Shown piece after piece: positions 1-51,866 of a stretch of DNA of 64,000 nucleotides. The stretch is from positions 1,184,001 to 1,248,000 of the forward strand of contig CAVVCZ010000004.1 in assembly GCA_963746845.1 (NCBI GenBank), written 5' to 3'. The stretch comes from an uncultured Chloroflexia bacterium. Lineage in GTDB: Bacteria; Chloroflexota; Limnocylindria; Limnocylindrales; CSP1-4. Numbering within the stretch: the stretch's first letter is position 1; the number at the start of each line of letters is the position of its first letter. Under the pieces are notes generated by a model. It was not told the DNA's origin. It searched no databases and was given only the letters and a program-made list of their open reading frames with translations. The translations under genes were made by a program, and so were the position numbers.

Positions 1-194
1 TGCGCCCGCGCCGCGACCTCCGGCACGATCCCGCCCGCCGCCGCGTGAAGCGCCGTCTGGCTCGCGACGACGTTCGAGAGGATCGTCCGACCGCCCTGGA
101 TCACCGCGATCCCGGTCTCGTCGCACGACGACTCGACCGAGAGCACGACGCTCTCCTCCAGCGGCGGGCTCGGACGACCGCCGCCCGACGTCAT
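1..194 (-). CDS. tsaD: tRNA N6-threonylcarbamoyltransferase TsaD, 5' part (runs off the window edge)
   Basis: Not in the ORF track. Manual translation from ATG 194 (ATGA overlap with the rimI stop) gives [43 protein letters not shown], the TsaD N-terminal signature. Confidence 0.93.
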
Positions 195-793
195 GGGTCG
201 GTCCTCGGGGGCGGCTCCGTGCCTTCGTCGACGACCAGGTCCTCGTCCGGCTCGAACGGGCCGGTCGGCGCCGGGCCGTCGTCGAGGTCCACCCGGAGAC
301 GCTCGATCCGCGCCCGGACCACGGGGTCGTCGAGCGGCTCCGTCGTCATGATCAGCGCGTCCTCGTTGTTGTCGCTGTAGTAGCGCGGCCGGAGCCCCAC
401 CGGGCGGAAGCCGTACTTCTCGTACAGCCGGCGCGCGGCCACGTTCGAGAGGCGGACCTCCAGGGTGGCCTCGCGCGCGCCCCGGTCCCGGGCGAGGTCG
501 AGGAAGGCGAGCAGCAGGCGCTCGCCCAGCCGCTGGCGTCGCCAGGCCGGATGGACCGCGAACGTCGTGATGTGCGCCTCGTCGACCATCAGCCACATCC
601 CGCCGTAGGCGACGATCCGTCCGCCCGCCCGGGCGACGAGGTACGACGCGAGCCGGTTCGTCATCAGCTCGCTCCGGTAGGCGTTCGGCGGCCAGGGCGT
701 CGTGAAGCTGGCCTCCTCGATCCGGAGCACCTCGTCGAGGTCCTCGAGACGCATCGCCCCGATCACGATCTTCACCGGCGGTCGCGCGACCAT
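191..793 (-). CDS. rimI: Ribosomal-protein-S18 alanine N-acetyltransferase RimI (GNAT)
   Basis: [28 protein letters not shown] motif; tsaB-rimI-tsaD context. Confidence 0.93.
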
Positions 794-1503
794 GCGACCT
801 CCCCGCTCTCCGCGCGGACGCCGCGCGGCAGGCTGACGTACTCCGGGACGAGCCGGGCGAGATCGTCGCCGCCGTCCGCGAGCCGGGCCGCACCGAGCGC
901 CGCGAGGGTGCCCGCGAGCCCGGCACGCGCCGCCTCGCCGCGGGCCACCGCGTCGGCCGGGGCCCGGGCGTCGAGGTCGACCGCGATGATGACGTCGCCG
1001 GCACGGAGGTCCGGCTCGGTGCCGCCCGGCAGCAGCTCGGGCGGAACGCCCGCCCGGACGACGTGGCGATCGTTCGGCCCCGCCGGCAGCAGCAGGACGA
1101 TCCGGCCGATGTCGGGCGCGGCCGCGCCGACCGCGGCCGCCTCGACGGCCTCGGCCGCGGCGGCGGCCCGGATGAGCGCCTCGCCGGTCGACACACCGGC
1201 AATCGGAACGCCGAGCTCATGGGCCAGCGCCTTGGCGGTCGCGAGGCCGACCCGGAGCCCCGTGAACGCGCCCGGGCCCGTCCCGACGATCACGGCGCGG
1301 ATCCGCGATCGGCGCAGGTTCGCCTCGCCGTGGAGACGCCCGATCGCCGGGAGCAGCCCTGCGCCGTGCGTGCGGCCGGCCTCCCACGTCGTCACGCCGA
1401 GCAGGTCGCCACCCGGGTCCGCCGCCGCCACGACGACCCGGCTCGTCGCGGTGTCGATGGCGAGGAGCCACGGACGCCGCCCGTCGGAGCCGTTCCCGGT
1501 CAT
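772..1503 (-). CDS. tsaB: tRNA threonylcarbamoyladenosine biosynthesis protein TsaB
   Basis: LAIDTAT and [11 protein letters not shown] motifs. Confidence 0.95.
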
Positions 1504-2015
1504 CGAGCCGCCTCGAGATACCGCCGGTGCCGGTCATCGCCCGCGACGAGCTCGATCGTGCGCGGCTCGTCGCCGCTTCCCTCGATCCGGATGTCCAGCC
1601 GCCCGGCCGGGAGGACGGGACCCATCCGATCCGGCCATTCGACGACGGTCAGCCCGTCCTCCTGGCGCTCGTCGACGACGCCGCCGGCGAGCGCGTCGGC
1701 GGCATCCGCGAGCCGGTACAGGTCGACGTGGAAGAGGGGCAGGCGGCCGCGGTACTCCGACATCAGGACGAAGGTCGGCGAGTTGACCGTGTCCTCGATG
1801 CCGAGGCCCACGGCGACCCCCTTGGTCAGCTGCGTCTTGCCGGCGCCGAGCTCGCCCCACAGGCAGAGCAGGTCGCCGGCCCTCCCCAGCCGACCCAGAC
1901 GCTCGCCGAGCGCCAGCGTGTCGGCCGGCGACGACGATCCGACGAGGGCCCGATTCCCGGTGACGCCACGGGCGACGCCGGCCGCCGCGGCTCCACCGGC
2001 CTGACGGCCGGTCAT
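1500..2015 (-). CDS. tsaE: tRNA threonylcarbamoyladenosine biosynthesis ATPase TsaE
   Basis: Walker A GELGAGKT, SPTF, HVDLYRL and VEWP motifs. Start taken at ATG 2015, just after the upstream stop; the longer 441-aa ORF overlaps another gene. Confidence 0.93.
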   Translation of the reverse strand: MTGRQAGGAAAAGVARGVTGNRALVGSSSPADTLALGERLGRLGRAGDLLCLWGELGAGKTQLTKGVAVGLGIEDTVNSPTFVLMSEYRGRLPLFHVDLYRLADAADALAGGVVDERQEDGLTVVEWPDRMGPVLPAGRLDIRIEGSGDEPRTIELVAGDDRHRRYLEAAR

Positions 2016-2017
2016 CG

Positions 2018-3085
2018 TCAGACGAACCGCTCGAGATCGGCGATCGGCACCGGGCGCGGCGTGTCGTCGCCGAACGACACCCAGCCGGCCTCGAGGAACG
2101 TGCCACCGGCGAACCGGCGGATCCCGGCCAGCCCCGCCCAGCGGCCCTCTTCGCCCGCATGCTCGCCGGATCGAACCCGGACGTGGCTCGGCGGCGGGAT
2201 CCGCACGTCGATCCCCGGCGCATCGAACACGAGCGCCGGCGGGTCGACCGAGATCGCCACCGTCATGCCCGCGAGCGCCTCGAGGATCGCGGCGATGGGT
2301 CCGGCGATCGGGCGGCGAATGACTCCATCGAGGATCAGCACGGCGAACGGCGGCAGGCGATGGAGGGCGGCCCGCTGGCGAGCCTCCGAGGCCAGGAAGT
2401 CGCGCCGCTCCTTGCCGGCCAGCCCGCTGACGATGACCCCCCGGACGCCCATCGCCCGGGCCCGCGTCAGCGCCTCCGCGTCGACCCGCGAGCCGATCAC
2501 GAGGATCGTCCCAGCAAGCCCGACGTCGAGCGAGGTCGAGCGCAGCCGGCCGTGACGGACGTCGCCGCGATCGGTTCCAAGGGACAGCCGCCCGCTCGTC
2601 GGGTCGCCGAGCGCCTCCACGCCCGGCATCGCCCGGCCCTGGGCCTGGACGCGGACGGAGATCCCCGGCCGGATCTCTCGCACCACGCCGGCGGTCGGGC
2701 AGTCGACGCCCTCGACGTGATCGCCGGTCGCGAGCGCCCAGTGCCCGCCGTGCTCGTAGACCAGCTCGCCAGCGTCCGCGCCGACCGACCGCCGGACCCG
2801 GGCCGCCTGACCGGTCCCGGACCACGCCGAGCCGGGACGCGCGAGCTCGTCGGTCGAACCGGACGGCAGCTCCGCCAGCCGCGGATCCCGGAGGCGCTCC
2901 GCGATCGTCGTGCCCGCGACGATCGCGTCCCCGGTCCGGACGAGGATCCGATCCCCGGGCCCGAGCCTGAACGCGATCTCGATCGCGTCGCGGAGCAGCG
3001 TCCGGCCCGTGACGAGGTCCAGCCCACGGCCGTGCGGGCGCGGCTCGACCGTCTCGGGGGTCTCGGATCGGACGTCGGTCGTCAT
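2018..3085 (-). CDS. Conserved hypothetical protein with barrel-sandwich-hybrid-like N-terminus, central alpha/beta domain and KOW/SH3-like C-terminus
   Basis: ATG 3085 overlaps the upstream stop (ATGA). Motifs: LVRTGDAIVAGTTIA and CPTAGVVREI (biotinyl/lipoyl-like half motifs), GTILVIG..ALTRARAMGVRGVIVSG, and VRVRSGEHAGEEG..VPIADLE. Confidence 0.75.
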   Translation of the reverse strand: MTTDVRSETPETVEPRPHGRGLDLVTGRTLLRDAIEIAFRLGPGDRILVRTGDAIVAGTTIAERLRDPRLAELPSGSTDELARPGSAWSGTGQAARVRRSVGADAGELVYEHGGHWALATGDHVEGVDCPTAGVVREIRPGISVRVQAQGRAMPGVEALGDPTSGRLSLGTDRGDVRHGRLRSTSLDVGLAGTILVIGSRVDAEALTRARAMGVRGVIVSGLAGKERRDFLASEARQRAALHRLPPFAVLILDGVIRRPIAGPIAAILEALAGMTVAISVDPPALVFDAPGIDVRIPPPSHVRVRSGEHAGEEGRWAGLAGIRRFAGGTFLEAGWVSFGDDTPRPVPIADLERFV

Positions 3086-4713
3086 CGGTCCCGGGTCAGC
3101 CACAGGGATTCCTGCCACGCGTCGAGCAGCTCTCGCCGGCGCTCGAGTCGATCGGGCAAGCGGAGCGGCACGTCGCGAAGGTCGACGAGCAGGCCCCCCA
3201 GCCCGCCCCCGACGTCGACCGCGAACCGCCGGCCGCGCACGCCGAGCCGGACCGCATCGCGGAAGTGCAGCTCGGCCGTGGCCACCTCGCCCGGCGGCAG
3301 GTCGACGAGCTCGAGGCCGCCGGGCACCAGATCGCTGTCCGAGACCCCCGAGCCGCCGTGGATCCGGAGCGTGCCGGCGCTCTGGCCGGCGCGGATCCCG
3401 GCCGGGATCACCACGCTGCCGAGGGGCGTCAGCACGTCGTCCACGAGGTCGATCAGCGCCTGCCGGCGCTCGACGGGGTCCGGGATCACGCCGAGCGAGC
3501 CGAGGAGGCGGGAGTGGTCCTGGGCGATCGCGATGGCGGCCGGGCGACGCACGACATCCGCGAGAGCGAGGGCGACGGCCGGGCCCGGGGCGCAGGCAAA
3601 GGCTCCACCCGAGACGATGACGAGGTCCGGGGCGGGCAGCGCCGACTGGGCCGGCGTCGCCTCGACGAGGACGCCCAGGGCGGCGCGCGCCGCCGCGAGC
3701 CGGAGACGGGCCCCGTCACCGGCGATCGCCGACCACGGCCACAGACGCAGCTCGCGCAGCCGGTCGCGCAGGCGATGACGGTCGAGGGAGATCGTGGACC
3801 AGGCGAGGACGCGATCGACCGTGACGTCGCCGGGGTCCGGTGGGACGAGGCAGGCATCGGCGATGATCGAGACCTGGGCGGTGGCCTCCGCGCCGCCGAC
3901 GCCCGGGCTGGCGGTCGCACGGAGACCGCCATCGAAGCCGATCTCGATCAGCTCGACCCGGCGGTCGAGGACGTCTGCGAGCGCAGCGGTCATCCGTCCC
4001 GCGGCGCGTCGTGGGTCGTCGGGTCCGCCGCGGGCATCGTCGAGCAGGCGCCGCAGCGGCTCGCCGGGCGGGTCGCCGGTCATCGCGGCCGGGGCCAGCA
4101 GGATCTCGCCGCCGCGATCGCCGGACGACGACTCGATCCGGCCGAGTTGATCCGCCATCGCCCCGGCGAGGATCACCGTCAGCTCCGGGCGGCGGGCAAC
4201 GACGCCGGCCACGATCGCGGCGAGCTCGTCGAGCTGGCGCCGCTCGTCGGCACCGGGTGGGTCGCCCGCCCCGACGAGGATGACGTCCACGTCCGGATCG
4301 AGCAGCGCACGGGTGAGGACAAGGGGATCCGCGCCATCGCGGGTCACGCCGCTGGTACGCCAGCCGGTCTTGCGCGCCGCGGCCACCAGGGGCCCCAGGG
4401 CGCGATCCGAGACCGCGACCGCCAGTAGGGACCGGGCGGGTGCGCTGCGCGCCACGAGCCGCGGGAGGTCGGCGGCGATCGTCGCGGGCTCGACGAGGCC
4501 GTCGTGCGGCCCGAGGCCGAGCGCCGACCAGAGCTGGGGATCGGCGGCGTGGACCCGGCGCACGAGCTCGGTGCCCATCGCGTCGACGTCGCCCGGAGCG
4601 GGCAGCTGGAGCGAGCCCACGAGGCGCCAGCGATGGGCCAATCGGCCGATCATGGCAGTCGAGGTCGTCGCGGCACCGAGGTCGACGGCAAGGAACGCGC
4701 GGGGATCCGTCAC
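3082..4713 (-). CDS. Glutamate mutase L (GlmL/MutL)-like ASKHA-fold ATPase family protein
   Basis: N-terminal phosphate-1-like AVDLGAATT, second ELIEIGFDGG, adenosine-like IVSGGAF and C-terminal GGLGGLLVDLRDVPL..RRELL..W. Family assignment is from motif recall only. Confidence 0.65.
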   Translation of the reverse strand: MTDPRAFLAVDLGAATTSTAMIGRLAHRWRLVGSLQLPAPGDVDAMGTELVRRVHAADPQLWSALGLGPHDGLVEPATIAADLPRLVARSAPARSLLAVAVSDRALGPLVAAARKTGWRTSGVTRDGADPLVLTRALLDPDVDVILVGAGDPPGADERRQLDELAAIVAGVVARRPELTVILAGAMADQLGRIESSSGDRGGEILLAPAAMTGDPPGEPLRRLLDDARGGPDDPRRAAGRMTAALADVLDRRVELIEIGFDGGLRATASPGVGGAEATAQVSIIADACLVPPDPGDVTVDRVLAWSTISLDRHRLRDRLRELRLWPWSAIAGDGARLRLAAARAALGVLVEATPAQSALPAPDLVIVSGGAFACAPGPAVALALADVVRRPAAIAIAQDHSRLLGSLGVIPDPVERRQALIDLVDDVLTPLGSVVIPAGIRAGQSAGTLRIHGGSGVSDSDLVPGGLELVDLPPGEVATAELHFRDAVRLGVRGRRFAVDVGGGLGGLLVDLRDVPLRLPDRLERRRELLDAWQESLWLTRDR

Positions 4714-4719
4714 CGGTTC

Positions 4720-4725
4720 ATGCTA
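4720..4725 (-). promoter_or_regulatory. Putative -10 element (TAGCAT) of a leaderless transcript for the GlmL-like gene
   Basis: TAGCAT lies 6 nt upstream of GTG 4713, with no Shine-Dalgarno in between. Confidence 0.45.
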
Positions 4726-4762
4726 CCCGGGCGCCGCCGGGATGGCCGGACCTACCGGCGCG

Positions 4763-5053
4763 CTATGCGTCCCAGGTGACCTCTTCGTCGATCTCCTCGA
4801 GCCGCGCGATCAGCAGCTCGATCCCGGCATCGTCGGCAAGGATCAGCGACGCCGACGCGTCGTCCCCGCCGAACAGGCCGCGGAGCACCGGGTCGAAGAA
4901 GAGCATCGCGTTCGCCCCGAGGGGGCGGTACGGGCGGCTCGCCTCGAGGAAGTGGACGGCCGGGCCGGTCAGCCCGCGCAGCTGGATCTCGCGAGCGACC
5001 CGCTCGACCAGCTCGTCGCGCTGCTCCTCGGTCCGCTCGTACGAGAAGCTCAT
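4763..5053 (-). CDS. Small helical hypothetical protein (96 aa)
   Basis: MSFSYERTEEQRDELVERVAREIQLRGLTGPAVHFLEASRPYRPLG..LLIARLEE. The ATG overlaps the macrodomain stop (ATGA) and the composition is globular. Confidence 0.8.
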   Translation of the reverse strand: MSFSYERTEEQRDELVERVAREIQLRGLTGPAVHFLEASRPYRPLGANAMLFFDPVLRGLFGGDDASASLILADDAGIELLIARLEEIDEEVTWDA

Positions 5054-5610
5054 GCCGGGATCGGCTTGGGCACGATCGACGAGGTGGCCGGACCGACGGA
5101 ACCGCCGATGGGCGTCGCCAGGGCGGCCTCGAGGGCGTGATAGGCGGCGGCGCCGCGCATCGCGAAGATGACATGCTCGATCGTCGGCGAGCGCTCGAGC
5201 TCGTAGCGCACGGCGTGGACGGTGACGCGGGCCGCCTCGTCGAGCGGGAACCCGCCGACGCCGGTCCCCATCGCCGGGAAGGCGATGCTCCGGACGCGCA
5301 GCTCGCGGGCCCGGGCCATCGCGCTCCGGATGGCCCGGTCGAGGATGTCCGCGCTCGTCCGCCGGTCGCGGTCGAGCGACACGGCGTGGACCACGAAACG
5401 CGCGGCCAGCGATCCGGCCGGGGTCACGATCGCCTCGCCGAGCGGGACGGGCGCCTGGCGCACGGCGGCGAACTCGATCTGGTCTCCGCCGGCTCGCTTG
5501 ATCTCGCCGCCCACGCCCGTCGACATCCACAGCGACAGGTTCGCGGCATTCACGATGGCGTCGACCTCGAGGTCGCAGATATCGCCATTCCAGAGCTCGA
5601 TCCGAGCCAA
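5050..5610 (-). CDS. Macrodomain protein (MacroD/YmdB-type ADP-ribose binding or O-acetyl-ADP-ribose deacetylase)
   Basis: GDI..DAIVNAAN..GVGGEI..AGG, VVHAV and SIAFPAMGTGVGG motifs. TTG start at 5610 with GGAGG upstream. Confidence 0.88.
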   Translation of the reverse strand: MARIELWNGDICDLEVDAIVNAANLSLWMSTGVGGEIKRAGGDQIEFAAVRQAPVPLGEAIVTPAGSLAARFVVHAVSLDRDRRTSADILDRAIRSAMARARELRVRSIAFPAMGTGVGGFPLDEAARVTVHAVRYELERSPTIEHVIFAMRGAAAYHALEAALATPIGGSVGPATSSIVPKPIPA

Positions 5611-6863
5611 GAGGCCTCCATCCCGGAAAGGGCACGCGTGCCCGTGATTCCAGCCGGCGCATCGTACACCCGGGTCAGCCGAGCGGACATGGCGGTGACG
5701 ACCTCCCACGAGTTCGTGGTGCGCCATCGCGCCACCTCACCGGCCGGGATCGTCTCGTCGGCCTGCGTCCCGATCAGGACGACCTCGTCGGCGACGTTCA
5801 CGGGCGCGCCCGGCACGTCGGTCACGTCGATCATCGTCGCGTCCATCGCCACGTTGCCGACGACCGGCACGCGCTTCCCGCGGACGAGCGCCGCGGCCCG
5901 GTTCGACAGCGATCGCGGCCAGCCGTCGCCGTAGCCGATCGGCAGGGTGGCGATCCGGCTCGGCCGCGACGCCCGCCAGGTCGGGCCGTACGAGACGCCG
6001 TGCCCCACCGGCAGCTCGACGACCCGGACCGGCCGCGCCCGGAGCGACAGGGCGGGTCGCAGGCCCTCGGCGCCCGGGACGAATGCCCCGGTTCCGAGCC
6101 CGGCGGCCGGCAGCTCGTCGGGGATCAGGCCGTAGGTGATGAGGCCGGGTCGGACCGCGTCGTACCGGGGGACGGTGCCGAGGAGGATCGCGGCGCTCGC
6201 GGCGAGGTGACGGCGGGGCACCCGGATGTCGGCCGCCTGCAGCGACGCGAGCGCCGCGTCATAGCGTCGGACCTGCTCGATCGTGATCAATTCGACCTCG
6301 GCCTCCTGGAGATGCGACCAGACGCCGCTCAGCCGGGCCCCGGCCGCGAGGATCCGGTGACCGACGTCCGCGACCTCGTCCACGGCCGCGCCGCCGCGAC
6401 CCAGGCCGGTCTCGACCTCCAGCTCGATGTCGAGCTCGCCGACGACGCCGGCGTCCACCGCCGCCGCGAGCAGCGCGTCCACCGCCGGCCCGTTGCCGGC
6501 GGCCACCGCCACCCGCGCGCGGACCGCGGTCGCGACCTCGGCCGGTGGGATCGGGTAGAGGACGAGGATCTGCACCACGATCCCGGCCGCGCGCAGCGCA
6601 ACCGCCTCGTCGAGCGTCGCCACGCACAGCGCGGCGGCACCGGCGGCCTCGACGGCCCGGGCGATCGGGACCATCCCGTGGCCGTAGGCATCGGCCTTCA
6701 CGACGGGCATCGTGGGCAGGCCGCCGGTCATCGTGCCGATCGCGCCGAGGTTGCCCTCGATCGCGGCGAGGTCGACCTCGATCCAGGCCGTGCGCCGAAG
6801 GGCCGGGAGACCGGCCGCGGCGAGGCGTGTCTCGATCGACGGGCGGTCGCCGGTGCCGGTCAG
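5550..6863 (-). CDS. alr: Alanine racemase (PLP-dependent)
   Basis: VVKADAYGHG (catalytic Lys), ETGLGRGG, VRPGL, GVSYG (catalytic Tyr) and IGYGDG. The conserved N-terminal AWIEVDLAAI lies upstream of the first ATG (6731), so the start is placed at CTG 6863; the start is uncertain. Confidence 0.88.
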   Translation of the reverse strand: MTGTGDRPSIETRLAAAGLPALRRTAWIEVDLAAIEGNLGAIGTMTGGLPTMPVVKADAYGHGMVPIARAVEAAGAAALCVATLDEAVALRAAGIVVQILVLYPIPPAEVATAVRARVAVAAGNGPAVDALLAAAVDAGVVGELDIELEVETGLGRGGAAVDEVADVGHRILAAGARLSGVWSHLQEAEVELITIEQVRRYDAALASLQAADIRVPRRHLAASAAILLGTVPRYDAVRPGLITYGLIPDELPAAGLGTGAFVPGAEGLRPALSLRARPVRVVELPVGHGVSYGPTWRASRPSRIATLPIGYGDGWPRSLSNRAAALVRGKRVPVVGNVAMDATMIDVTDVPGAPVNVADEVVLIGTQADETIPAGEVARWRTTNSWEVVTAMSARLTRVYDAPAGITGTRALSGMEASWLGSSSGMAISATSRSTPS

Positions 6864-10509: not shown

Positions 10510-11844
10510 TCAGTTTAGTCGCTCACCCGCGAGGATCGAGATCGCGTCGGCCAGCTCGGAAACAAGTGTTGCGTCCTCGCCCTCGACCATGACCCGCAGG
10601 GCGGGCTCCGTGCCGGACGGCCGGACGAGGACACGACCACCGCTGCCCAGCCGCTCCTGCGCGTCGCCGATCGCCCGCTGGATCGCCGGATCCCCCTCCC
10701 ACTGGTCCTTGTGACGGGCCTTGACCGCTCGCTGCTGCTGCGGCAGGAGCGGGATCCGTGAGGCGAGCTCGGCCAGCGGCCGGCCCGTGCGCGTCATCAC
10801 CCGGAGGACCTCGAGCGCGGTGACGATCCCGTCGCCGGACGTCGTGTGCTCGAGGACGATGACGTGGCCGCTTTTCTCGCCGCCGAGGCCGGCCCCGGAC
10901 ACCTGCATCCCCTCGAGGATGTACTTGTCGCCGACCGGCGTCCGGATGACGTGGCCACCGGCGCCTTCAACGGCGGACTGGAGCCCGCCGTTCGACAGCA
11001 CCGACACGACCAGGGCGCCGTGCGGAAGCACGCCGCGCTCGAGTCGGTCCAGGGCGAGCACCCCAAGCACCTGGTCGCCGTCGACGACCTCGCCGGTGGC
11101 ATCGACCGCGATCAGCCGGTCCGCGTCGCCGTCGAGGGCAAACCCGATGTCAGCGCCACGCTCGCGGACCGCCCGGGCAAGCGACGCGGGCGCCGTCGCC
11201 CCGGCGGCGACGTTGATGTTGATCCCGTCCGGGTCGTTGTGGATCGCCTCGACGGTCGCCCCCGTGGCCGCGAGGATCTCCGGCCCGACGACGCCACCGG
11301 AGCCGTTGGCGCAGTCCAGCACGATCCGCAGGCCGGCTGCCGGGACGGACCGGGCGAGCCCGAGCCGATGGCCGCGATACCGGTCGAGCAGGGACGGATC
11401 CACGACCGATCGTCCGATCTCGGCATTGCCGACCGATCCGAGCTCCTCGGTGCGCCAGATCAGCGCCTCGATCTCGTCCTCGACGCTGTCGTCGAGCTTG
11501 AGCCCGTTCGCGTCGAGGACCTTCAACCCGTTGTCGTCGGCGGGATTGTGCGAGGCCGAGACCATGATGCCCGCAGCGAAGTCGTCGGTCCCTGCCAGGA
11601 ACGCCAGCGCCGGCGTCGGGACGCAGCCCGCGATCCGGACGTCTGTGCCAAGGCTGGTCGCCCCGGCCGAGATCGCGGCCACGAACATGTCGCCCGAGCG
11701 ACGGGTGTCCTGCCCGACCACGAGCTGCCCGCCCTTCCCGACGAGGCGATGCGCCGTCGCCCGCCCGAGCGCGTAGGCGAGGGTCGGCTTGAGCTCGAGG
11801 TTCGCGACACCGCGGATCCCGTCGGTGCCGAACAGGCGGGGCAT
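10510..11844 (-). CDS. glmM: Phosphoglucosamine mutase
   Basis: FGTDGIRG, SASHNP, DGDADR and RPSGTEP motifs. Confidence 0.97.
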   Translation of the reverse strand: MPRLFGTDGIRGVANLELKPTLAYALGRATAHRLVGKGGQLVVGQDTRRSGDMFVAAISAGATSLGTDVRIAGCVPTPALAFLAGTDDFAAGIMVSASHNPADDNGLKVLDANGLKLDDSVEDEIEALIWRTEELGSVGNAEIGRSVVDPSLLDRYRGHRLGLARSVPAAGLRIVLDCANGSGGVVGPEILAATGATVEAIHNDPDGININVAAGATAPASLARAVRERGADIGFALDGDADRLIAVDATGEVVDGDQVLGVLALDRLERGVLPHGALVVSVLSNGGLQSAVEGAGGHVIRTPVGDKYILEGMQVSGAGLGGEKSGHVIVLEHTTSGDGIVTALEVLRVMTRTGRPLAELASRIPLLPQQQRAVKARHKDQWEGDPAIQRAIGDAQERLGSGGRVLVRPSGTEPALRVMVEGEDATLVSELADAISILAGERLN

Positions 11845-11845
11845 G

Positions 11846-13075
11846 TCAGGGAGCCGCCGGCGACGGGCTGGCGGGCGCGGTCACCGTCACGCTGACGGTG
11901 GTCGGCGTCACCGAGAGCACGCGGAGACCCGCCTGGACGTTGGGGACCGGCTGGATCTCGTGGACTCCCGGTCCGAGACCCGCGACATCGACGGTGATCG
12001 TGAAGGCCGCCGGATCGATCCGGTCGAGGTCGGCCACGGGGCCGCCGAGCGTCACCTGGACGCTGCCGGTCGACAGCGTGTAGCCGTAGCCGGGCTGCCG
12101 CCCGGACAACACGAGCGCGGCCTCGAACGTGCGGGTGCCCTGCTTCGGCAGGATCTCGACCGTGACGTGGACCGTGGTCACGTTGAGGGCGATGACGCCC
12201 GGCGGCAGCGCGAGCGCGACCGGCGTGTCGATCGAGCCGGTCGCCGTGCTGACCGGGATCGGGGCCGTGTCCGCGGTCGTGAGCGAGGACAGCGCCGCCG
12301 CGTCGCCCTGGACGGTCACGTTGACCGGCTCGACCGTCACCGGACCGACCTCGTAGCCGGCCGGCGGCGTGCCGACGACGGCGGGATGCACCGGGATCGT
12401 CTTCGACTGCGCATTGCTGATGACGTCGATCCGCACATGGACCGTCTTCGGGTCGACGTTGACCGGTCGGAGCTCGTTGCCCTGGTTGTCGACCGGGATC
12501 AGCGGGACATCGCGATCAACGGACAGCCCGTGCGGGTCGATGGCCACGTCGGCCTGGGCCGCGACGACGTACTTCACGACCGAGTCGGGCCCCGACACCT
12601 TCGCGGTCTCCTGGGTCAGCTGCGGCGTTCCGACCTGGAGGTCGGGCGGCGTCGTCCCCGTGTCGACCGTGATCGGCACCGTGTATGTCGTGTACGGATC
12701 GAGCTGGACGTTGACCGCCCGGGGCTCGTAGTCGATGACGATGAAGCGGGGGTCGACCGAGGTCACATGGACCGTCTGGTACGACGAACCTGCGTTCGGA
12801 TCGACGCCGGCGAGGTCGACCGTGGCCAGCCACGTGTCGGGCGTCGGACCCGAGCCGACGTCGCCGTTGACGATGTACCGGATCCGGGTGACCGGTGGCA
12901 GGTTGCCGAGGACCACGGCGTCCTGGGGCTGGTTGAGGATCCGGATCGGGACGGGGCTCGTGAACTCGAACTGGCTCTGCGACACGACCAGGCCGGCATA
13001 CAGCAGGAATGCCAGGGCGATCGCCAGGAGCTTGAGCGGCCAGTTGTGGACGACGAGACCGACGAGTCGCTTCAC
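11846..13075 (-). CDS. cdaR: CdaR/YbbR-domain regulator of diadenylate cyclase
   Basis: N-terminal membrane anchor (NWPLKLLAIALAFLLY) followed by repeated Val/Pro-rich beta domains; position between cdaA and glmM. Confidence 0.85.
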   Translation of the reverse strand: MKRLVGLVVHNWPLKLLAIALAFLLYAGLVVSQSQFEFTSPVPIRILNQPQDAVVLGNLPPVTRIRYIVNGDVGSGPTPDTWLATVDLAGVDPNAGSSYQTVHVTSVDPRFIVIDYEPRAVNVQLDPYTTYTVPITVDTGTTPPDLQVGTPQLTQETAKVSGPDSVVKYVVAAQADVAIDPHGLSVDRDVPLIPVDNQGNELRPVNVDPKTVHVRIDVISNAQSKTIPVHPAVVGTPPAGYEVGPVTVEPVNVTVQGDAAALSSLTTADTAPIPVSTATGSIDTPVALALPPGVIALNVTTVHVTVEILPKQGTRTFEAALVLSGRQPGYGYTLSTGSVQVTLGGPVADLDRIDPAAFTITVDVAGLGPGVHEIQPVPNVQAGLRVLSVTPTTVSVTVTAPASPSPAAP

Positions 13076-14037
13076 CTGGGCGCTCGGGCCGCCGCTGCTG
13101 CGTCTTCGTCCACGACCTTGGCTGTCCCGTTCGAGGACGTGGCCGACGTCCCGTTCGAGCGACTCCGCCCGACCAGGTGACCGAGATCGCTCAGCCGCGG
13201 GGCCCGGCCGCCGAAGTCGCCGGTCGAGCCGAGGCGGCGCCCGATCCGGCCGCGGGCGCGGTCCGGCGCGAGGAGGGCCCGGATCGCCTTCACGAGCTGC
13301 GGCTGGCCGAGGTTGCGGACGATCCGCGCCCGCTCGACGAGGCTGACCTGGCCGTTCTCCTCGGAGACGACGATCACGACCGCGTCGGTCTGCTCGGTGA
13401 TCCCGAGCGCGGCCCGGTGGCGGGTCCCGAACCGCTCCGTGTGGACCGTCATCTCGGCGAGCGGCAGGAGCGCCCCGGCCGCGAGGATCGTGTCGTCGCG
13501 GATGATCACCGCGCCGTCATGGAGCGGCGTGCGCGGGGCGAACAGCGTCCGGAGGAGATCCGAGCTGATGTCGGCGTGGAGCATCACGCCGGTCTCGGCG
13601 ACCTCCTCGAGGCCCGTCTCCCGCTCGAGGACGATCAGCGCGCCGTGACCGTCCTTGGACAGCAGCGTCGCGGCCCGTGCGACCTCGTCCGCGACGTGGA
13701 CCACGGTCCGTGCCTCGGTCGACGAGAAGAGCCAGTTGAAGGACCCGACGCGTCCGACCCGCTCCAGCGCCCGGCGCAGCTCCGGCTGGAACACCACGAC
13801 GAGCGCGAACAGCCCGACGACGGCCAGGGTCTGGAGGATCTGGGTGAGCAGCCGGAGGTCGAACGCCCGGGCAGCGGCGTACACCGCGAACAGGACGCTG
13901 ACGCCGATGACGAGGCTGACGGCGCGGGTCCCGCGGATCAGGCTGAACAGCCAGTAGATCAGCAGCGCCGTGATCCCGATGTCGATCAGCGCGGTCAGGT
14001 CGATCTGGTCGACGATGGACCTGAGAAGCTCCGGCAT
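13072..14037 (-). CDS. cdaA: Membrane-bound diadenylate cyclase CdaA/DacA
   Basis: Three N-terminal TM helices, FQPELRRALE, LHDGA and GTRHRAA catalytic motifs. Confidence 0.95.
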   Translation of the reverse strand: MPELLRSIVDQIDLTALIDIGITALLIYWLFSLIRGTRAVSLVIGVSVLFAVYAAARAFDLRLLTQILQTLAVVGLFALVVVFQPELRRALERVGRVGSFNWLFSSTEARTVVHVADEVARAATLLSKDGHGALIVLERETGLEEVAETGVMLHADISSDLLRTLFAPRTPLHDGAVIIRDDTILAAGALLPLAEMTVHTERFGTRHRAALGITEQTDAVVIVVSEENGQVSLVERARIVRNLGQPQLVKAIRALLAPDRARGRIGRRLGSTGDFGGRAPRLSDLGHLVGRSRSNGTSATSSNGTAKVVDEDAAAAARAPR

Positions 14038-14114: not shown

Positions 14115-15434
14115 TCAGGCGCACAGCTCCGCGACGCGCGGCTCGTCGGCCAGACGCGTTGTGACGAGCTCGCACAGGCGCCGCCGGGTGTCGGCGTCGG
14201 CGTCGAGCTCGGCGATCCGGCCCAGGAGCAGGAGCTTGTCGGCGGCCTGGCTGCGCCAGCCCCGGTCGAGGTACAGCTCGGACAGGAGCAGATGGAGATC
14301 GGGGTCGGACGGGGCGAGGCCGATCGCTAGGTAGCAGGCGTCGATCGCGGCCACGAGCCGGCCGGCTCGGCGATGGGCTCGCGCCGCGGCGAGGAGACCG
14401 GCATGGGCCTCCTCGAGCTCGCCGGCGTACAGATGGGCCTCGGCCGCCGCGCCGAGCGCGATGCCGAGACCGATCGGCTCGACGACCTCGAGCTCGGGCT
14501 CGGCCGGGACCGTCGCGGGCTCGGCCGGGACCGTCGCGGGCTCGGCCGGGACCGGCTCGGCCTCGGCGGCCGCAGCCGGTTCGGGTTCGGGCTCCGCTCC
14601 GGCATCAGGCGGCTCCGGGGCGGGCTCGGCTGCGGCGACGACCGGCGCCGGTTCGGCATCGGACGCAGGCGCCTCCGTGACCGCCTCGGGCTCCGGGGCG
14701 GGCTCGGGCTCGGGCTCGGCCGGCTCGGGCTCCGGGGCGTTGGCTTCCTCGACGGGCTCGGGCTCGGGCTCCGGGGCGGGCTCTGCCACCGCCGGCTCCA
14801 ACAGCCGGAGCGCCTGGGACAGCGCACGCTGGGCCGCCTCGTCGCCCGGCGACGCTTCGCTCAGCCGGGCGGTCAGCTCCTCGACATGGGACCGCCGGGC
14901 CCGCGATTCGGCCAGCTCGAGCGACCGCCGGGCGGCGTCGGTCGCGTCGGCCAGCCGGCCGGCATCGTCCAGGGCGTCAGCCAGGCGATCCAGCGCATCG
15001 GCCGCCGCGGTCCGGCGCCCGAGGCGGGCCAGGGTCTCGGCGATCCCGCGCAGGGCGACTTCGTCCTTCGGTGCGAGGGCGAGGGCGCGTTCGTAGGCCG
15101 CCACCGCGTCGGCGGGCCGGTTCATCTTCGCGAGGATCCCGCCCATGCTCGCGTGCGGCAGCGCCCGGTCCGGCGCGATCGATGCGGCCTCGCCGTAGGC
15201 ATCGATCGCCGCGTCGTTCCGACCGCGGAGCGCCGCGACGTGACCGCGTCGGAGCGCGTCCTTGTACCGCTCGTAGAGCGCCGCGGAGCCCAACGGGACC
15301 CGGGCCGTCGCGCTCGGCCGCGACGTCGTCCCGGACCGCGGCGTCACCCGTGGCCCCCCCTTGCCCGCCAGCCCGTCCTGCTCGGCGCCGGTCGGCCAGG
15401 CGGACTTCCGGTCCGGATCCTTCGCCGGGCTCAT
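14115..15434 (-). CDS. Tetratricopeptide-repeat protein with a central Pro/Glu/Ala-rich linker
   Basis: TPR-like helices (AIDAYGEAASIAPD, AVAAYERALALAPKD) on both sides of an EPEPEP linker. The ATG overlaps the argF stop. Confidence 0.8.
   Translation of the reverse strand: MSPAKDPDRKSAWPTGAEQDGLAGKGGPRVTPRSGTTSRPSATARVPLGSAALYERYKDALRRGHVAALRGRNDAAIDAYGEAASIAPDRALPHASMGGILAKMNRPADAVAAYERALALAPKDEVALRGIAETLARLGRRTAAADALDRLADALDDAGRLADATDAARRSLELAESRARRSHVEELTARLSEASPGDEAAQRALSQALRLLEPAVAEPAPEPEPEPVEEANAPEPEPAEPEPEPAPEPEAVTEAPASDAEPAPVVAAAEPAPEPPDAGAEPEPEPAAAAEAEPVPAEPATVPAEPATVPAEPELEVVEPIGLGIALGAAAEAHLYAGELEEAHAGLLAAARAHRRAGRLVAAIDACYLAIGLAPSDPDLHLLLSELYLDRGWRSQAADKLLLLGRIAELDADADTRRRLCELVTTRLADEPRVAELCA
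14496..14554. repeat. 21-bp in-frame tandem repeat (about 2.8 copies) encoding VPAEPAT
   Basis: GGGCTCGGCCGGGACCGTCGC repeated directly. Confidence 0.85.
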
Positions 15435-16402
15435 CCGCCGAGGATCTCGACGAGGAGGGCCTTCTGGACGTGGAGGCGGTTCTCAGACTGGTCCCAGATG
15501 ATGCTCCGCGGACCGTCCATCACCGCAGAGGTGATCTCCTCGCCGCGGTGGGCCGGCAGGCAGTGCATTGCGACGGCGCTCGGCCCCGCGGTCTCGAGCA
15601 GCGCTTCGTCGACCTGGTAGTCCGCGAACGCGTCGCGTCGGGCCTCGGTCTCGGCCTCCTGGCCCATCGAGGTCCAGGCATCCGTGTACACGACGTCGGC
15701 GCCGCGGACCACCTGGGCCGGGTTGCGTCCGAAGACGAGGATTCCGCCGGTGGCGGCCGCCAGGGCCTCGGCCCGCTCGACGATCCGTGGGTTCGGGCCG
15801 TACTCGGCCGGATGGGCGAGCCGGACTTCCATCCCGAGCATGGCGCCGAGCAGCGCGAGCGAGTGGTACACGTTGTTGCCGTCGCCGACGAACGCGAGGA
15901 CGCGGCCGCGCAGGTCGCCGAAGCGCTCGCGGAGCGTGAAGATGTCGGCCAGGGCCTGGCACGGGTGCTCGCGCAGGGTCAGGCCGTTGATCACGGGGAT
16001 CGAGGCCTGCGCGGCGAGCTCGACGACGACCTCGTGCGGGCCCGTGCGGGCGACGATCGCGTCGACGAACCGGTCGAGGTTCCGGGCGACATCGCGGACG
16101 CTCTCCCGGGCCCCCATCACGACGTCCTCGGTCAGGTAGATCGCCTGCCCGCCGAGCTGGTTCATCCCGGCCTCGAACGTGACCCGGGTCCGGAGGCTCG
16201 GCTTCTGGAACAGCATCGCCAGGGTCCGCCCCGCCAGCGGCGTGGCGCCCGGGGCGTCGTGGTCGCGCCGAGCCCGGTCCTCGGCCTTCAGGCGGGCGGC
16301 GCGCTCGAAGAGCCGCTCGACCTCGCCGGTCGACAGGTCGGCCACGGACAGCAGGTCCCGTCCGCGCAGCGACACTCCGGAACCGGCAACGGCATTCACC
16401 AC
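15431..16402 (-). CDS. argF: Ornithine carbamoyltransferase
   Basis: SLRT, HPCQ, GDGNN, DAWTSMG and HCLP motifs. Confidence 0.93.
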   Translation of the reverse strand: MVNAVAGSGVSLRGRDLLSVADLSTGEVERLFERAARLKAEDRARRDHDAPGATPLAGRTLAMLFQKPSLRTRVTFEAGMNQLGGQAIYLTEDVVMGARESVRDVARNLDRFVDAIVARTGPHEVVVELAAQASIPVINGLTLREHPCQALADIFTLRERFGDLRGRVLAFVGDGNNVYHSLALLGAMLGMEVRLAHPAEYGPNPRIVERAEALAAATGGILVFGRNPAQVVRGADVVYTDAWTSMGQEAETEARRDAFADYQVDEALLETAGPSAVAMHCLPAHRGEEITSAVMDGPRSIIWDQSENRLHVQKALLVEILGG

Positions 16403-16405
16403 GCC

Positions 16406-16411
16406 ATGCTA
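16406..16411 (-). promoter_or_regulatory. Putative -10 element (TAGCAT) directly upstream of argF (leaderless)
   Basis: TAGCAT lies 3 nt from GTG 16402 and 6 nt from in-frame GTG 16399, with no SD. Confidence 0.45.
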
Positions 16412-34131: not shown

Positions 34132-35334
34132 GTCGTCCCTACTCGACGATCGTGACGATGGCGCCGGCGCCGACGGTCCGGCCACCCTCGCGGATGGCGA
34201 ACCGCTGGCCGACCTCGAGGGCGATCGGGGTGATCAGCTCGACGCTCATCTCGACGTTGTCGCCGGGCATGATCATCTCGGCCCCGTCGGGCAGCCCGAT
34301 CGCACCGGTCACGTCGGTCGTGCGCAGGTAGAACTGCGGCCGGTAGCCGTTGTAGAAGGGGGTGTGGCGGCCGCCCTCCTCCTTGGTCAGGACGTAGACC
34401 TGCGCCGTGAACTTCGTGTGGGGCTTGACCGAGCCGGTCTTGGCCAGGACCTGGCCGCGCTCGATCTCCTCGCGCTCGATGCCCCGGATCAGGCAGCCGA
34501 CGTTGTCGCCGGCGCGGCCCTCGTCGAGGAGCTTCTTGAACATCTCGACGCCGGTCACGACGATCTTGCGGGTGGCCTTCACGCCGACCAGCTCGACCTC
34601 GTCGCCGACCTTGACGATGCCGCGCTCGATCCGCCCGGTGGCGACCGTCCCCCGGCCCTTGATCCCGAACACGTCCTCGACCGGCATGAGGAACGGCTTG
34701 TCGATCGCCCGCTCGGGGGTCGGGATGTACGCGTCGACCGCGTCCATCAGCTCCTGGATCGGGGCGTACGCCGGGTTGGACGGATCGTCCGGTGCCTCGA
34801 GCGCCTTGAGGGCGCTGCCGCGCACGACCGGCAGGTCGTCGCCCGGGAAGTTGTACTTGCTCAGCAGCTCGCGGACCTCGAGCTCGACGAGGTCGAGCAG
34901 CTCCGGGTCGTCGACCATGTCGACCTTGTTGAGGAACACGACGATGTACGGGACCTCGACCTGGCGGGCGAGCAGGATGTGCTCGCGGGTCTGGGGCATC
35001 GGGCCGTCGGTCGCGGCGACGACGAGGATCGCGCCGTCCATCTGGGCGGCACCGGTGATCATGTTCTTGATGTAGTCGGCGTGGCCCGGGCAGTCGACGT
35101 GGGCGTAGTGGCGCTTGTCGGTCTCGTACTCGACGTGGGCGATCGCGATCGTGATCCCGCGCTCCCGCTCCTCGGGGGCGTTGTCGATCGTGTCGAACGC
35201 GCGGTACTCCGCCTCGCCCTTCAGGGCGAGGTACTTGGTGATCGCCGCGGTCAGGCTCGTCTTGCCGTGGTCGATGTGGCCGATCGTGCCGATGTTCACG
35301 TGCGGCTTGGTGCGCTCGAACTTCTTCTTGGCCA
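34127..35334. repeat. About 1.2-kb direct repeat, copy 1 (tuf plus the downstream RBS and start codon)
   Basis: Appears identical to 50658-51865; the ORF track gives identical translations, including alternate frames. Confidence 0.92.
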
Positions 35335-35335
35335 T
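34139..35335 (-). CDS. tuf: Elongation factor Tu (copy in the str operon)
   Basis: [16 protein letters not shown] and NKVD. Confidence 0.99.
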
Positions 35336-51865: not shown

Positions 51866-51866
51866 C
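50670..51866 (-). CDS. tuf: Elongation factor Tu (copy after the tRNA cluster)
   Basis: Protein identical to 34139-35335; GTG start. Confidence 0.99.

Follow-up and report, generated by a model that had tools for sequence, protein, structure and literature searches.

The window, that is, the whole 64,000-nucleotide stretch of DNA that was analysed, carries two adjoining open reading frames on the minus strand, here called P1 and P2, and translation of the window bore out the coordinates given for both in an initial annotation. P1 (3082..4713, minus strand) starts with GTG and encodes a putative, divergent ASKHA-like protein of 543 aa, and P2 (2018..3085, minus strand) encodes a protein of 355 aa. 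As had been described, the two are joined by an ATGA stop/start overlap (3082..3085, minus strand), wherein the P2 ATG occupies 3085-3083 and the P1 TGA 3084-3082. Third-position GC is 0.90 in P1 and in P2 alike. The public gene call of P1 is too short by 20 codons.

Downstream, on the same minus strand, P2 is followed by tsaE (1500..2015; Pfam TsaE, E 2.3e-34), a probable operon member whose ATG at 2015 lies only 2 nt past the P2 stop, then by tsaB, a TsaD-family paralogue (772..1503; Pfam PF00814, E 5.6e-18, together with synteny) that overlaps tsaE by 4 nt, by a rimI-like GNAT acetyltransferase gene (191..793; Pfam Acetyltransf_1, E 5.5e-21, together with synteny), and by the 5′ part of tsaD (3..194), which is cut by the window edge and whose ATG overlaps the rimI stop. 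The N-terminus encoded at 3..194 we take to be TsaD-like, and homologues of this fragment come after rimI in related loci with a median identity of 77% (69 loci). Both the spacing and the Pfam matches of the downstream genes agree with the earlier description of the pair as running into tsaE-tsaB-rimI-tsaD, and judging from the spacing, co-transcription of P1-P2 into these genes is likely. The genes upstream of P1 form a cell-wall related block of cdaA, cdaR, glmM, glmS and alr.

Conservation of the gene pair and its candidate promoter

Database relatives at E≤1e-3 number 1,456 for P1 and 1,491 for P2, none of them named, and where labelled they belong to Limnocylindria, an uncultured Chloroflexota class of soil and freshwater whose genomes come from environmental metagenomes. 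One database ORF (P0358) appears to join P1, P2 and TsaE. Neither P1 nor P2 has a match in Pfam, NCBIfam or PADLOC models, or among PDB sequences. In a synteny set of 80 related genomic loci, covering up to 8 kb either side, P2 comes directly after P1 in 71 of the 71 loci with enough downstream sequence, so that the two genes, initially regarded as a candidate module, are conserved together, and tsaE comes after P2 in 69 of 69, the candidate P2-tsaE gap having a median of about 36 nt (70 loci). Of 76 loci, 56 show a 4-nt overlap of the P1 stop with the P2 start (ATGA in 43, GTGA in 12 and TTGA in 1) and 13 an 8-nt one, while the other 7 differ; with 69 of the 76 junctions overlapping by 4 or 8 nt, the translational coupling read from the window extends to its relatives.

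The pair occupies the same housekeeping position in every genome examined, and the 12-gene order from glmS to tsaD is frozen throughout the class in the related loci. Because this order is frozen within a single class, the adjacency to the t6A genes carries little independent information, and it may reflect no more than an insertion of P1-P2 between two old housekeeping blocks. P1 and P2 are real, conserved genes, neither defence genes nor plasmid-borne, and they constitute a new protein family pair.

A TAGCAT -10-like hexamer (4720..4725, minus strand) lies 6 nt upstream of the P1 GTG, and the pair had been credited with its own candidate leaderless promoter. The comparison of loci bears this out: 57 of 71 have TAGCAT ahead of the start codon of P1, 6 nt off in 49 and 7 nt in 8, and the remaining 14 hold TANNNT variants (6 loci) or no box (8 loci). 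The hexamer is otherwise rare, as 57 of its 62 occurrences on both strands of 1.19 Mb of loci are these pre-P1 sites, and the intergenic length upstream of P1 is otherwise variable, ranging from 24 to 337 nt. A simple consensus sigma-70 scan upstream of P1 yielded no site. In mycobacteria and Deinococcus-Thermus, leaderless genes are known to be marked by a TANNNT -10 box directly before the start codon (PMC3898074, PMC12340547). TAGCAT is thus supported, by comparison of upstream sequences, as a conserved candidate leaderless promoter of the pair.

Fold of P1 and its relation to GlmL

As read from AF2 secondary structure and the alignment of 28 members (32-53% identity), P1 would open with an N-terminal beta-beta-beta-alpha unit carrying DxGxxT, followed by an inserted CheY/flavodoxin-like alpha/beta domain (residues about 85-196), a second lobe with the [DE][IV]G..GG and GG motifs, and a C-terminal part composed of a beta domain and a terminal helix. 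The three motifs noticed initially, AVDLGAATT (residues 9-17), IEIGFDGG (256-263) and IVSGGAF (366-372), are all present. Across the 28 members, D11 and G13 of the phosphate-1 loop (A-V-D11-L-G13-A-A-T16-T) and G369 and G370 of the adenosine-like loop are at least 90% conserved. The phosphate-2-like loop, [DE]257-[IV]-G259-x-x-[GA]-G-x-R, was placed by position and predicted strands and is without the canonical GGG-T; read by eye, the alignment shows an acidic residue 257 in 26 of 28 members, and G259 is conserved to at least 90%. D399, R416, D426 and P430 are invariant in the alignment, and P1 has no conserved lysine. With the phosphate loops retaining their acidic and glycine residues, and the adenosine loop its GG, P1 most likely binds nucleotide; since the phosphate-2 loop lacks GGG-T and a conserved lysine is missing, it may be a pseudo-enzyme.

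The AF2 model of P1 has a mean pLDDT of 50.9, with residues 1-200 forming a block at pLDDT 60-89 and the remainder poor. With this low-confidence model, Foldseek gave six matches at E≤1e-3 (E 2e-4 to 1e-3), all of them ASKHA proteins, namely four Ppx/GppA chains, an N-acetylmannosamine kinase and an N-methylhydantoinase, and lower down CoaX, Hsp70, a 2-hydroxyacyl-CoA dehydratase activator, EutJ and Kae1 (rank 48); owing to the poor models, the TM-scores are very low (0.07-0.13) and the E-values marginal. The insert matched flavodoxin-like folds and Spo0F with a Foldseek probability of 1.0, and CheY weakly (E 0.011). In the Atlas, 26 of 30 feature hits (scores 0.94-0.98) fell in cluster sets with PF13941, the GlmL/MutL family, at a partial share in 17 and at 100% in 9, and the other 4 hits were without a common family; the nearest two of the named clusters have shares of 16% and 28%, and a Chloroflexota cluster (582 aa, score 0.94) has one of 100%. 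Profile methods (Pfam, NCBIfam) assign P1 to no ASKHA family. Therefore, of the proposed ASKHA ATPase, the fold stands as plausible from conserved motifs, weak Foldseek matches and embedding neighbours, while a matching profile family did not emerge.

P1 had further been called GlmL-like, and it does resemble GlmL/MutL (PF13941, TIGR01319) in its apparent membership of the actin-like ATPase superfamily, in an N-terminal D-x-G-[ST]-x-T hairpin, and in looking like an accessory protein without an obvious substrate. As a family assignment, however, the label fails the Pfam, hhalign and hmmsearch tests, and membership was rejected. PF13941 is unmatched by P1 at E≤0.1 and by all 39 P1 representatives at E≤0.01, and only one of the 28 family members touches it (E 0.088; the cut-off is 27 bits), whereas the positive control, E. 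coli O157 GlmL, scores 467.8 bits; TIGR01319/NCBIfam likewise gave no P1 match. The hhalign comparison of the P1 family with a GlmL alignment covered the first 31-35 columns, that is, the N-terminal hairpin (E 0.045), and nothing past it, and the P1-family HMM scored at most 4.2 bits on 120 hits of the E. coli GlmL query, where reversed sequences reached no more than -0.9 bits. Since the GlmL alignment is shallow (22 sequences, 55-99% identity), P1 and GlmL may yet be distantly related. Additionally, P1, with 543 aa, exceeds E. coli O157 GlmL (462 aa) by about 80 aa, adjoins no glmE/glmS, unlike GlmL, and has an obligate, translationally coupled partner in P2, whereas the E. coli O157 glm cluster shows none.

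These comparisons bear on the reading that P1 is a true GlmL/OraF-type reactivase and that the pair serves to repair or load a radical enzyme, B12-dependent or other, whose gene lies elsewhere in the genome. The Atlas neighbours with PF13941, the single member at E 0.088 and the N-methylhydantoinase among the top Foldseek matches would suit it, as would the description of GlmL as a chaperone reactivating glutamate mutase in a figure legend (PMC4682846, Fig 4). The failed profile comparisons weigh against it, and so does the neighbourhood, where, as stated in the initial annotation, no mutase or B12 gene was found: a tblastn search of the window and the 80 loci (about 8 kb either side) for E. 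coli O157 GlmE, GlmS, GlmL and methylaspartase returned two chance-level hits (E 0.95-0.98), and Pfam on 16 further window ORFs revealed no B12 or mutase gene save a PGM-type phosphoglucosamine mutase. By position and length, the remaining window ORFs would be the ribosomal-protein, rpoB/C and tuf block. With the pair also fixed at one housekeeping locus in every genome seen, we regard this reading as rather unlikely.

Domains of P2 and the predicted P1-P2 complex

P2 begins with an N-terminal tail that is variable in the alignments, followed by a split barrel-sandwich-hybrid-like beta domain (residues about 36-148) suggested by a low-confidence AF2 model (mean pLDDT 48.1), a highly conserved alpha/beta domain (residues about 190-290), and a KOW/SH3-like C-terminal beta domain (residues about 300-355). 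P2 has a single conserved lysine, K225, which falls within the alpha/beta domain, outside the beta hairpin. Foldseek with the pLDDT-48 model found no match at E≤1e-3; the best matches, all below significance (E≥0.02), were the RNAP Si3 SBHM, the RnfC N-terminal domain, domain II plus KOW of Thermotoga maritima NusG, and DUF2118, led by 8emb_F, 8ahx_C and 2xhc at E 0.02-0.04, with RnfC chains at E 0.023-0.12. The Atlas neighbours of P2 bear RnfC_N or Biotin_lipoyl, and in one cluster the RnfC_N share is 25%, but Pfam detected RnfC_N (PF13375) in 0 of 30 P2 members. KOW (PF00467) was matched by 3 of these 30, with a best E of 0.011 and below the gathering score, and SH3_18 by one further member, and a KOW-like V-R-V-x-x-G-x-x-x-G-x-E-G motif is visible at the C-terminus in the alignment. 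Unlike the RnfC- and NusG-type modules, P2 lacks an NGN domain, Fe-S and flavin motifs, and a lipoyl/biotinyl lysine. A role as a biotinyl/lipoyl carrier was rejected, as PF00364 was matched by 0 of 30 members at E≤10 and the hairpin, in which only generic barrel-sandwich half-motifs were seen, holds no conserved lysine. From these faint resemblances, P2 looks like a barrel-sandwich hybrid with an alpha/beta domain and a KOW-like end, and the three-part reading given initially agrees with the predicted secondary structure, the weak Foldseek matches, the Atlas neighbours and the KOW matches.

That the two proteins form a complex, as the initial annotation had it, agrees with structure prediction, in which the pair reached an ipSAE of 0.86, 0.86 and 0.85 in three runs, against 0.00 for the best control. 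The predicted interface comprises 143-147 contacts, with at least 90% of contacts agreeing between runs, and the pLDDT in the complex is 82-83 for P2 and 86 for P1. The score is the model's own confidence and not a measurement; 116 of 157 solved complexes and 2 of 215 mismatched pairs attain the mark applied, a calibration that is rough here, own alignments having been used. Because no PDB sequence resembles P1 or P2, the pass is not the recall of a solved complex. Physical binding of P1 to P2 is therefore supported by prediction.

Such a pair could also act on a small molecule as a hydantoinase-, kinase- or carboxylase-type enzyme, wherein P1 would phosphorylate or activate a metabolite and P2 would supply a second catalytic or swinging-arm domain. 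Hydantoinase-type enzymes are multi-subunit and ATP-dependent with a large ASKHA subunit, and hydantoinase A/N-methylhydantoinase/acetophenone-carboxylase subunits occur among the P1 Foldseek matches (9h03_A, E 7.9e-4; 5l9w_b, E 1.5e-3), a list made up mostly of kinases, phosphatases and N-methylhydantoinase. The barrel-sandwich hybrid is a fold typically found in swinging-arm and carboxylase components, which would suit P2, and D399, R416, D426 and P430 of P1 could make an active site together with K225 of P2. However, Hydantoinase_A/Hydant_A_N gave no Pfam match in the 28 P1 members, P2 is unlike HyuB by the tests run, the barrel-sandwich hairpin offers neither a conserved lysine nor a Biotin_lipoyl match, no enzyme family model matches, and the operon is without metabolic genes, so that we give an enzymatic role only a small chance.

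A proposed ATP-dependent switch

Based on these results, we propose, at about even odds, that P1 and P2 form a two-subunit complex acting as a nucleotide-driven switch or chaperone, with the translation apparatus perhaps as its client. First, the leaderless TAGCAT promoter would drive a unit in which P1-P2 come first and tsaE-tsaB-rimI-tsaD follow, and translational coupling would provide matched amounts of P1 and P2 as subunits of one cytoplasmic complex. P1 would then bind, and probably hydrolyse, nucleotide in the cleft that separates its lobes, and P2 would clamp P1 at the inserted domain, at its most conserved helix (residues 311-336) and at the loop after the GG motif, such that nucleotide-driven opening and closing of P1 could reposition P2 or a client held by P2. 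The complex would thereby work as an ATP-dependent switch or chaperone akin to the ASKHA reactivases, without their tie to a B12 mutase. Our best guess at the client is the t6A machinery, tRNA or the ribosome, drawn from the operon position and the KOW-like domain and from nothing else. A role in envelope biogenesis, raised as a possibility in the initial annotation, gained no specific backing. The ASKHA fold, nucleotide use, mechanism and client are all inferred here.

As a mechanistic analogy, we adopt DdrA-DdrB, the diol/glycerol dehydratase reactivase, which is a two-subunit ASKHA chaperone whose extra domain and small partner bring about ATP-dependent exchange with a client; unlike those of P1-P2, the DdrAB genes accompany that of a B12 enzyme, its client.

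A narrower version, to which we assign a low probability, is that P1-P2 adds, in this lineage specifically, an ATP-driven accessory pair of subunits to t6A or ribosome maturation, expressed under the leaderless promoter with tsaE-tsaB-rimI-tsaD. The KOW-like domain of P2 would then dock on tRNA or the ribosome, K225 would reach towards the nucleotide site of P1, and P0358 would be a genuine Rosetta-stone fusion of P1, P2 and TsaE. TsaB and TsaD share the ASKHA fold proposed for P1 and probably belong to one transcription unit with the pair. However, PF00814 (TsaD) is matched by 0 of 28 P1 members even at E≤5, the domain layout of P1 differs from those of TsaB, TsaD and TsaE, and P1-P2 has so far been seen in one class, against the near-universal occurrence of TsaBDE in bacteria.

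The idea that P1 polymerises as actin-like proteins of the ParM/MreB/FtsA kind do, with P2 as its adaptor in cell shape, division or segregation, fits an actin-superfamily fold with a dedicated partner and the upstream cell-wall block, but is very unlikely, since no filament-forming actin-like protein (MreB, ParM, FtsA, MamK) is named among the Foldseek matches listed, the large insert and C-terminal beta domain of P1 are unlike those polymers that are known, and the TAGCAT promoter stands between the wall genes and P1.

In conclusion, P1-P2 is universal among the genomes examined, neither gene is named by any protein-family library, and the TAGCAT-N6-start signature offers practical help in calling starts and promoters within Limnocylindria. 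If the predicted complex is real, it would represent a new two-subunit architecture in the actin/Hsp70/kinase superfamily, namely an ASKHA core with a CheY-like insert that is clamped by a barrel-sandwich/KOW partner, and would extend the range of reactivase-like ASKHA proteins beyond B12 metabolism. Should the pair act together with TsaBDE, this would alter the view of an essential tRNA-modification pathway that has been deemed fully described in bacteria.

A conserved and translationally coupled gene pair

The 543-aa ASKHA-like protein P1 (3082-4713, minus strand, GTG start) and its 355-aa partner P2 (2018-3085, minus strand) are encoded by a real, conserved and unannotated two-gene module, predicted to form a heterocomplex of a new ASKHA-like family with a new partner. 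According to the ORF listing and sequence reading, every gene in the left 16 kb of the window lies on the minus strand, and the TGA of P1 and the ATG of P2 overlap as ATGA. Third-position GC is 0.90 in both ORFs, which is typical of real genes in DNA of 70-75% GC, and the P1 translation holds all three motifs quoted by the initial annotation. Downstream follow tsaE (1500-2015, minus strand), with its ATG 2 nt from the P2 stop, tsaB (772-1503, minus strand) and a rimI-like GNAT gene (191-793, minus strand), both overlapping adjacent genes, and the start of tsaD (3-194, minus strand), overlapping the rimI-like gene. Upstream of P1 are a small 96-aa ORF (4763-5053, minus strand) and a macro-domain gene (5050-5727, minus strand), then alr, an NAD(P)HX dehydratase gene, acpS and glmS, and also glmM, a YbbR/CdaR-type gene and cdaA. 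The only Rfam matches in the window are four tRNAs, all far from the pair.

One genome per GTDB species was scanned, giving 323 P1 relatives, and the best 80 of these 323 loci were compared through tblastn of twelve window proteins, as far as each contig extends. Among these best 80, all loci share the order glmS-acpS-nnr-alr-macro-small ORF-P1-P2-tsaE-tsaB-rimI-tsaD, a claim that covers the compared genes and excludes glmM, the YbbR-type gene and cdaA. P2 directly follows P1 in 71/71 loci with room, tsaE follows P2 in 69/69, and the small ORF precedes P1 in 70/70. Within the same best 80 of 323, of 76 P1/P2 junctions, 56 are 4-nt overlaps (43 ATGA, 12 GTGA, 1 TTGA) and 13 are 8-nt overlaps; the other seven differ, and some of them are probably assembly errors. 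An overlap of 4 or 8 nt is therefore kept in 69/76, and the coupled two-gene module that had been proposed from the window alone is borne out. Since P2 and tsaE are separated by a short gap of variable length (median about 36 nt in the best 80), the tight translational coupling is specific to P1-P2. Few genes of the block evolve as fast as P1 and P2 (median identities 56% and 53% across these loci); alr (56%) and tsaB (58%) are close, and glmS reaches 81% and rimI 74%.

Labels of Chloroflexota type are borne by 78 of the best 80 records, and the remaining two, labelled Verrucomicrobiia and Patescibacteria, keep the full synteny and are probably mislabelled bins. Among the candidates scored, 1,456 relatives of P1 and 1,491 of P2 were found at E<=1e-3, with organism labels mostly of Candidatus Limnocylindrales or Chloroflexi. 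These labels place the source of the window in the class Limnocylindria (Chloroflexota). The best 120 relatives of each are 69-100% identical and without a Pfam domain, and every given name is "hypothetical protein". A profile search of 1.84 billion cluster representatives returned 561 proteins at E<=1e-3, 142 of them at E<=1e-30. A Pfam scan of 39 of them matched no actin-like family, and 12 of the 150 representatives listed carry P1 and P2 segments in one ORF (P0270, P0283, P0294, P0301, P0302, P0312, P0319, P0320, P0336, P0358, P0382 and P0389). In P0358 a TsaE domain is present as well, the junctions being roughly contiguous; these ORFs are either real fusions or frameshift artefacts. Pfam, NCBIfam and PADLOC gave no usable match and no curated model for either protein or for their family alignments, and sequence searches of the PDB with four profiles returned no relative, only noise and a weak CheY match. 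A plasmid comparison yielded no match for the pair, and with none in PADLOC either, a mobile or defence origin was rejected. No paper on such a pair was found in the PF13941, GlmL, ASKHA reactivase, Limnocylindria and t6A literature, a coverage outside which subscription journals lie.

Several other features of the window were observed. The small 96-aa ORF starts MSFSYERTEEQ and shares an ATGA stop/start overlap with the macro-domain gene before it. Neither Pfam nor PADLOC matches it, yet its conservation exceeds that of P1 and P2, with a median identity of 80% over 71 loci of the best 80 of 323. This unnamed and highly conserved small protein probably forms a pair with the macro-domain protein. 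At 10510-14037 (minus strand) lie cdaA (DAC domain), the YbbR/CdaR-type gene, glmM and glmS, directly followed by acpS, nnr and alr, and the order of the first four presumably matches the Firmicutes arrangement. An 877-aa ORF at 54276-56909 (minus strand) combines, in a single frame, an IspD domain (residues 13-237) with a full cysteinyl-tRNA synthetase (residues 424-869), being either a fusion or two genes without an in-frame stop between them. Two 398-aa ORFs (34139-35335 and 50670-51866, minus strand), identical in length and codon-position GC values, are probably two tuf copies, judging from their position in the ribosomal-protein/rpoBC region.

Candidate promoter and start codon of P1

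The spacer between the small ORF and P1 ranges from 24 to 337 nt among the loci and is unconserved except for one element. TAGCAT, usually after GG, precedes the P1 start codon in 57/71 loci (best 80 of 323), at 6 nt in 49 and 7 nt in 8; six more loci carry TAGGAT, TACCAT or TACCCT, and eight have nothing obvious. In 1.19 Mb of locus sequence, both strands included, TAGCAT occurs 62 times in all, 57 of them at the P1 start. Leaderless genes are known to be marked by a TANNNT -10 box placed immediately ahead of their start codon (PMC3898074, PMC12340547). The candidate leaderless promoter of the initial annotation is thus well supported, although a simple sigma-70 scan missed the element; sigma-70 and terminator consensus scans of 1900-5800 gave no match.

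The conserved spacing also identifies the GTG as the start codon of P1. In the public annotation, the P1 call (P0001, 523 aa) starts at Met21, 20 codons too late, and misses 4654-4713 (minus strand), which removes the conserved DxGxxT N-terminus kept by all homologues; the call probably went wrong because of the leaderless GTG start without a Shine-Dalgarno sequence. The window has four TAGCAT sites in all, and TAGCAT-N6-GTG also stands before an ornithine carbamoyltransferase ORF (15431-16402, minus strand; site 16396-16411), suggesting a general leaderless promoter form in this class.

Fold of P1 and its predicted complex with P2

In an alignment of 28 members (32-53% identity to P1), D11 and G13 of the D-x-G-x-x-T hairpin, G259 and G369-G370 are at least 90% conserved. 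G259 sits in [DE]-[IV]-G-x-x-G-G-x-R, and residue 257 is acidic in 26 of the 28. The AF2 models of P1 and P2 were built on shallow alignments (72-100% identical) and are both poor, so that their Foldseek results are indicative only. The P1 model (pLDDT 50.9, fair for residues 1-200) begins with beta-beta-beta-alpha and a five-stranded alpha/beta domain at about 85-196, followed by helices and, around the [DE][IV]G loop, a second beta-beta-beta unit; after a helical stretch come a beta domain at the C-terminus and, last, a long helix. Its six PDB matches at E<=1e-3 are all ASKHA proteins, namely four Ppx/GppA chains, N-acetylmannosamine kinase and N-methylhydantoinase, and lower-ranked matches comprise ROK kinases, CoaX, Hsp70/BiP, the 2-hydroxyacyl-CoA dehydratase activator, EutJ and Kae1; the bad packing of the model keeps all TM-scores very low (0.07-0.13). 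The insert matches flavodoxin-like folds and Spo0F with Foldseek probability 1.0, and the family profile weakly matches CheY (E 0.011). Among ESM Atlas embedding neighbours, 26/30 feature hits (scores 0.94-0.98) fall in cluster sets with PF13941, the GlmL/MutL family of glutamate mutase accessory ATPases, whose share is partial in 17 and 100% in 9. Taken together, alignment, AF2, Foldseek and Atlas make it very probable that P1 adopts an ASKHA fold into which a CheY/flavodoxin-like domain is inserted. Hydropathy gave no convincing membrane segment in P1 or P2, the maxima of 1.78 and 1.89 (19 residues) being on the GG strand and an Ala/Gly-rich helix.

P1 had been called GlmL-like, and this family assignment fell on Pfam, hhalign and hmmsearch alike. 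GlmL of E. coli O157:H7 Sakai, the positive control, scored 467.8 bits on PF13941, which matched neither P1 nor any of 39 cluster representatives (0/39); one of the 28 family members gave a match too weak to count (E 0.088). Against a 22-sequence GlmL alignment, hhalign aligned the first 31-35 columns only (E 0.045), and the P1-family HMM gave at most 4.2 bits on 120 GlmL-query matches (reversed-sequence control, at most -0.9 bits); the GlmL alignment is shallow (55-99% identity), which limits detection of a very distant relationship. P1 was therefore rejected as a PF13941 member, homology with GlmL being confined to the first hairpin. MutL/GlmL is described as a chaperone reactivating glutamate mutase in the Fig 4 legend of PMC4682846, and PMC5597319 lists glutamate mutase among actin-superfamily enzymes. 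As had been stated for the window, no mutase or B12 gene was found nearby: tblastn with GlmE, GlmS, GlmL and methylaspartase against the 80 loci and the window returned nothing real, and the other scanned window ORFs include no B12 gene. That P1 is a true reactivase of the GlmL type, serving an enzyme whose gene lies elsewhere, is unlikely, since only the first hairpin aligns, although the Atlas neighbours keep a very distant kinship alive as a lead. A hydantoinase- or kinase-like metabolic enzyme, of the kinds met among the Foldseek matches, is similarly unlikely. A polymerising actin-like P1 with P2 as adaptor is very improbable.

For P2, an alignment of 30 members (45-71% identity) divides the protein into four: a variable tail at the N-terminus; two half-motifs of the barrel-sandwich kind (PGDR-x-LV-x-x-G-x-x-V-x-x-G and P-x-x-G-x-V-x-x-V-x-P-G) with a variable loop between; a very conserved core (L-D-V-G-x-A-G-x-I-L-V-V-G-S-R-V-D-A-E-x-L-T-R-A-R-A-M-G-V-R-G-V-I-V-x-G-L-A-G-K-E-R-R-D-F); and a C-terminal segment (V-R-V-x-x-G-x-x-x-G-x-E-G ... 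D-L-E-R-F) of KOW-like appearance. The poor AF2 model (pLDDT 48.1) agrees in secondary structure with a beta / alpha-beta / beta layout. Its Foldseek matches are all above E 0.02, the top ones sharing the sandwich-barrel hybrid motif (RNA polymerase Si3, RnfC, Thermotoga NusG, DUF2118), and some clusters among its Atlas neighbours carry RnfC_N (25%) or Biotin_lipoyl (12-19%). Pfam KOW weakly matches 3/30 members (best E 0.011); Biotin_lipoyl and RnfC_N match 0/30. The earlier sketch of biotinyl/lipoyl-like half-motifs, an alpha/beta core and a KOW-like end is thus reasonable but weakly supported. The single lysine of P2, K225 (about 2411-2413, minus strand), present in at least 90% of the 30 members within G-L-A-G-K-E-R-R-D-F, lies in the alpha/beta domain and not at a hairpin tip; therefore, P2 is not a lipoyl or biotinyl carrier. 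The segment GTILVIGSRVDAEALTRARAMGVRGVIVSG, which we take to resemble the PEP-utilising "mobile" phosphohistidine domain, was dropped as such a domain, with Pfam matching 0/30 members and alanine at the histidine position.

Complex prediction with diverse alignments of P1 and P2 supports that the two proteins bind each other, as the modelling proposed earlier was to probe: ipSAE was 0.86, 0.86 and 0.85, versus 0.00 in all three controls. The models have 143-147 contacts, pLDDT 82-83 for P2 and 86 for P1, and runs that share at least 90% of contacts. For calibration, 116/157 solved complexes and 2/215 mismatched pairs reach the mark, counts that apply only roughly here, own alignments having been used. 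Neither chain resembles a PDB sequence, so the score is not recall of a solved complex. The predicted interface involves, on P1, helix 41-52, residues 129-175 of the inserted domain, the best-conserved helix (313-336) and the post-GG loop (374-376), and on P2 the barrel-sandwich domain, 223-225, 254-256 and the C-terminal domain. K225 falls within it, and the single lysine of P1 is absent from the listed conserved columns; that K225 completes the P1 nucleotide site in trans is pure speculation.

Proposed mode of action and client

Computation supports a coupled and conserved pair with its own leaderless promoter motif, a large predicted interface and conserved nucleotide-loop residues. We propose that P1 may act as a nucleotide-dependent two-lobe switch, that P2 would ride on the insert and lid of P1, and that ATP-driven closure of P1 could move P2 or a P2-bound client. 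Two-subunit ASKHA reactivases work by a comparable ATP-driven movement, and the likeness would lie in a closure that shifts the partner or client.

Probable co-transcription with tsaE-tsaB-rimI-tsaD and the KOW-like domain weakly suggest tRNA, the t6A complex or the ribosome as the client, these pointers having little force since all 12 genes keep one frozen order throughout the class. The pair may also have entered a pre-existing, old housekeeping block, the alr to tsaE neighbourhood.
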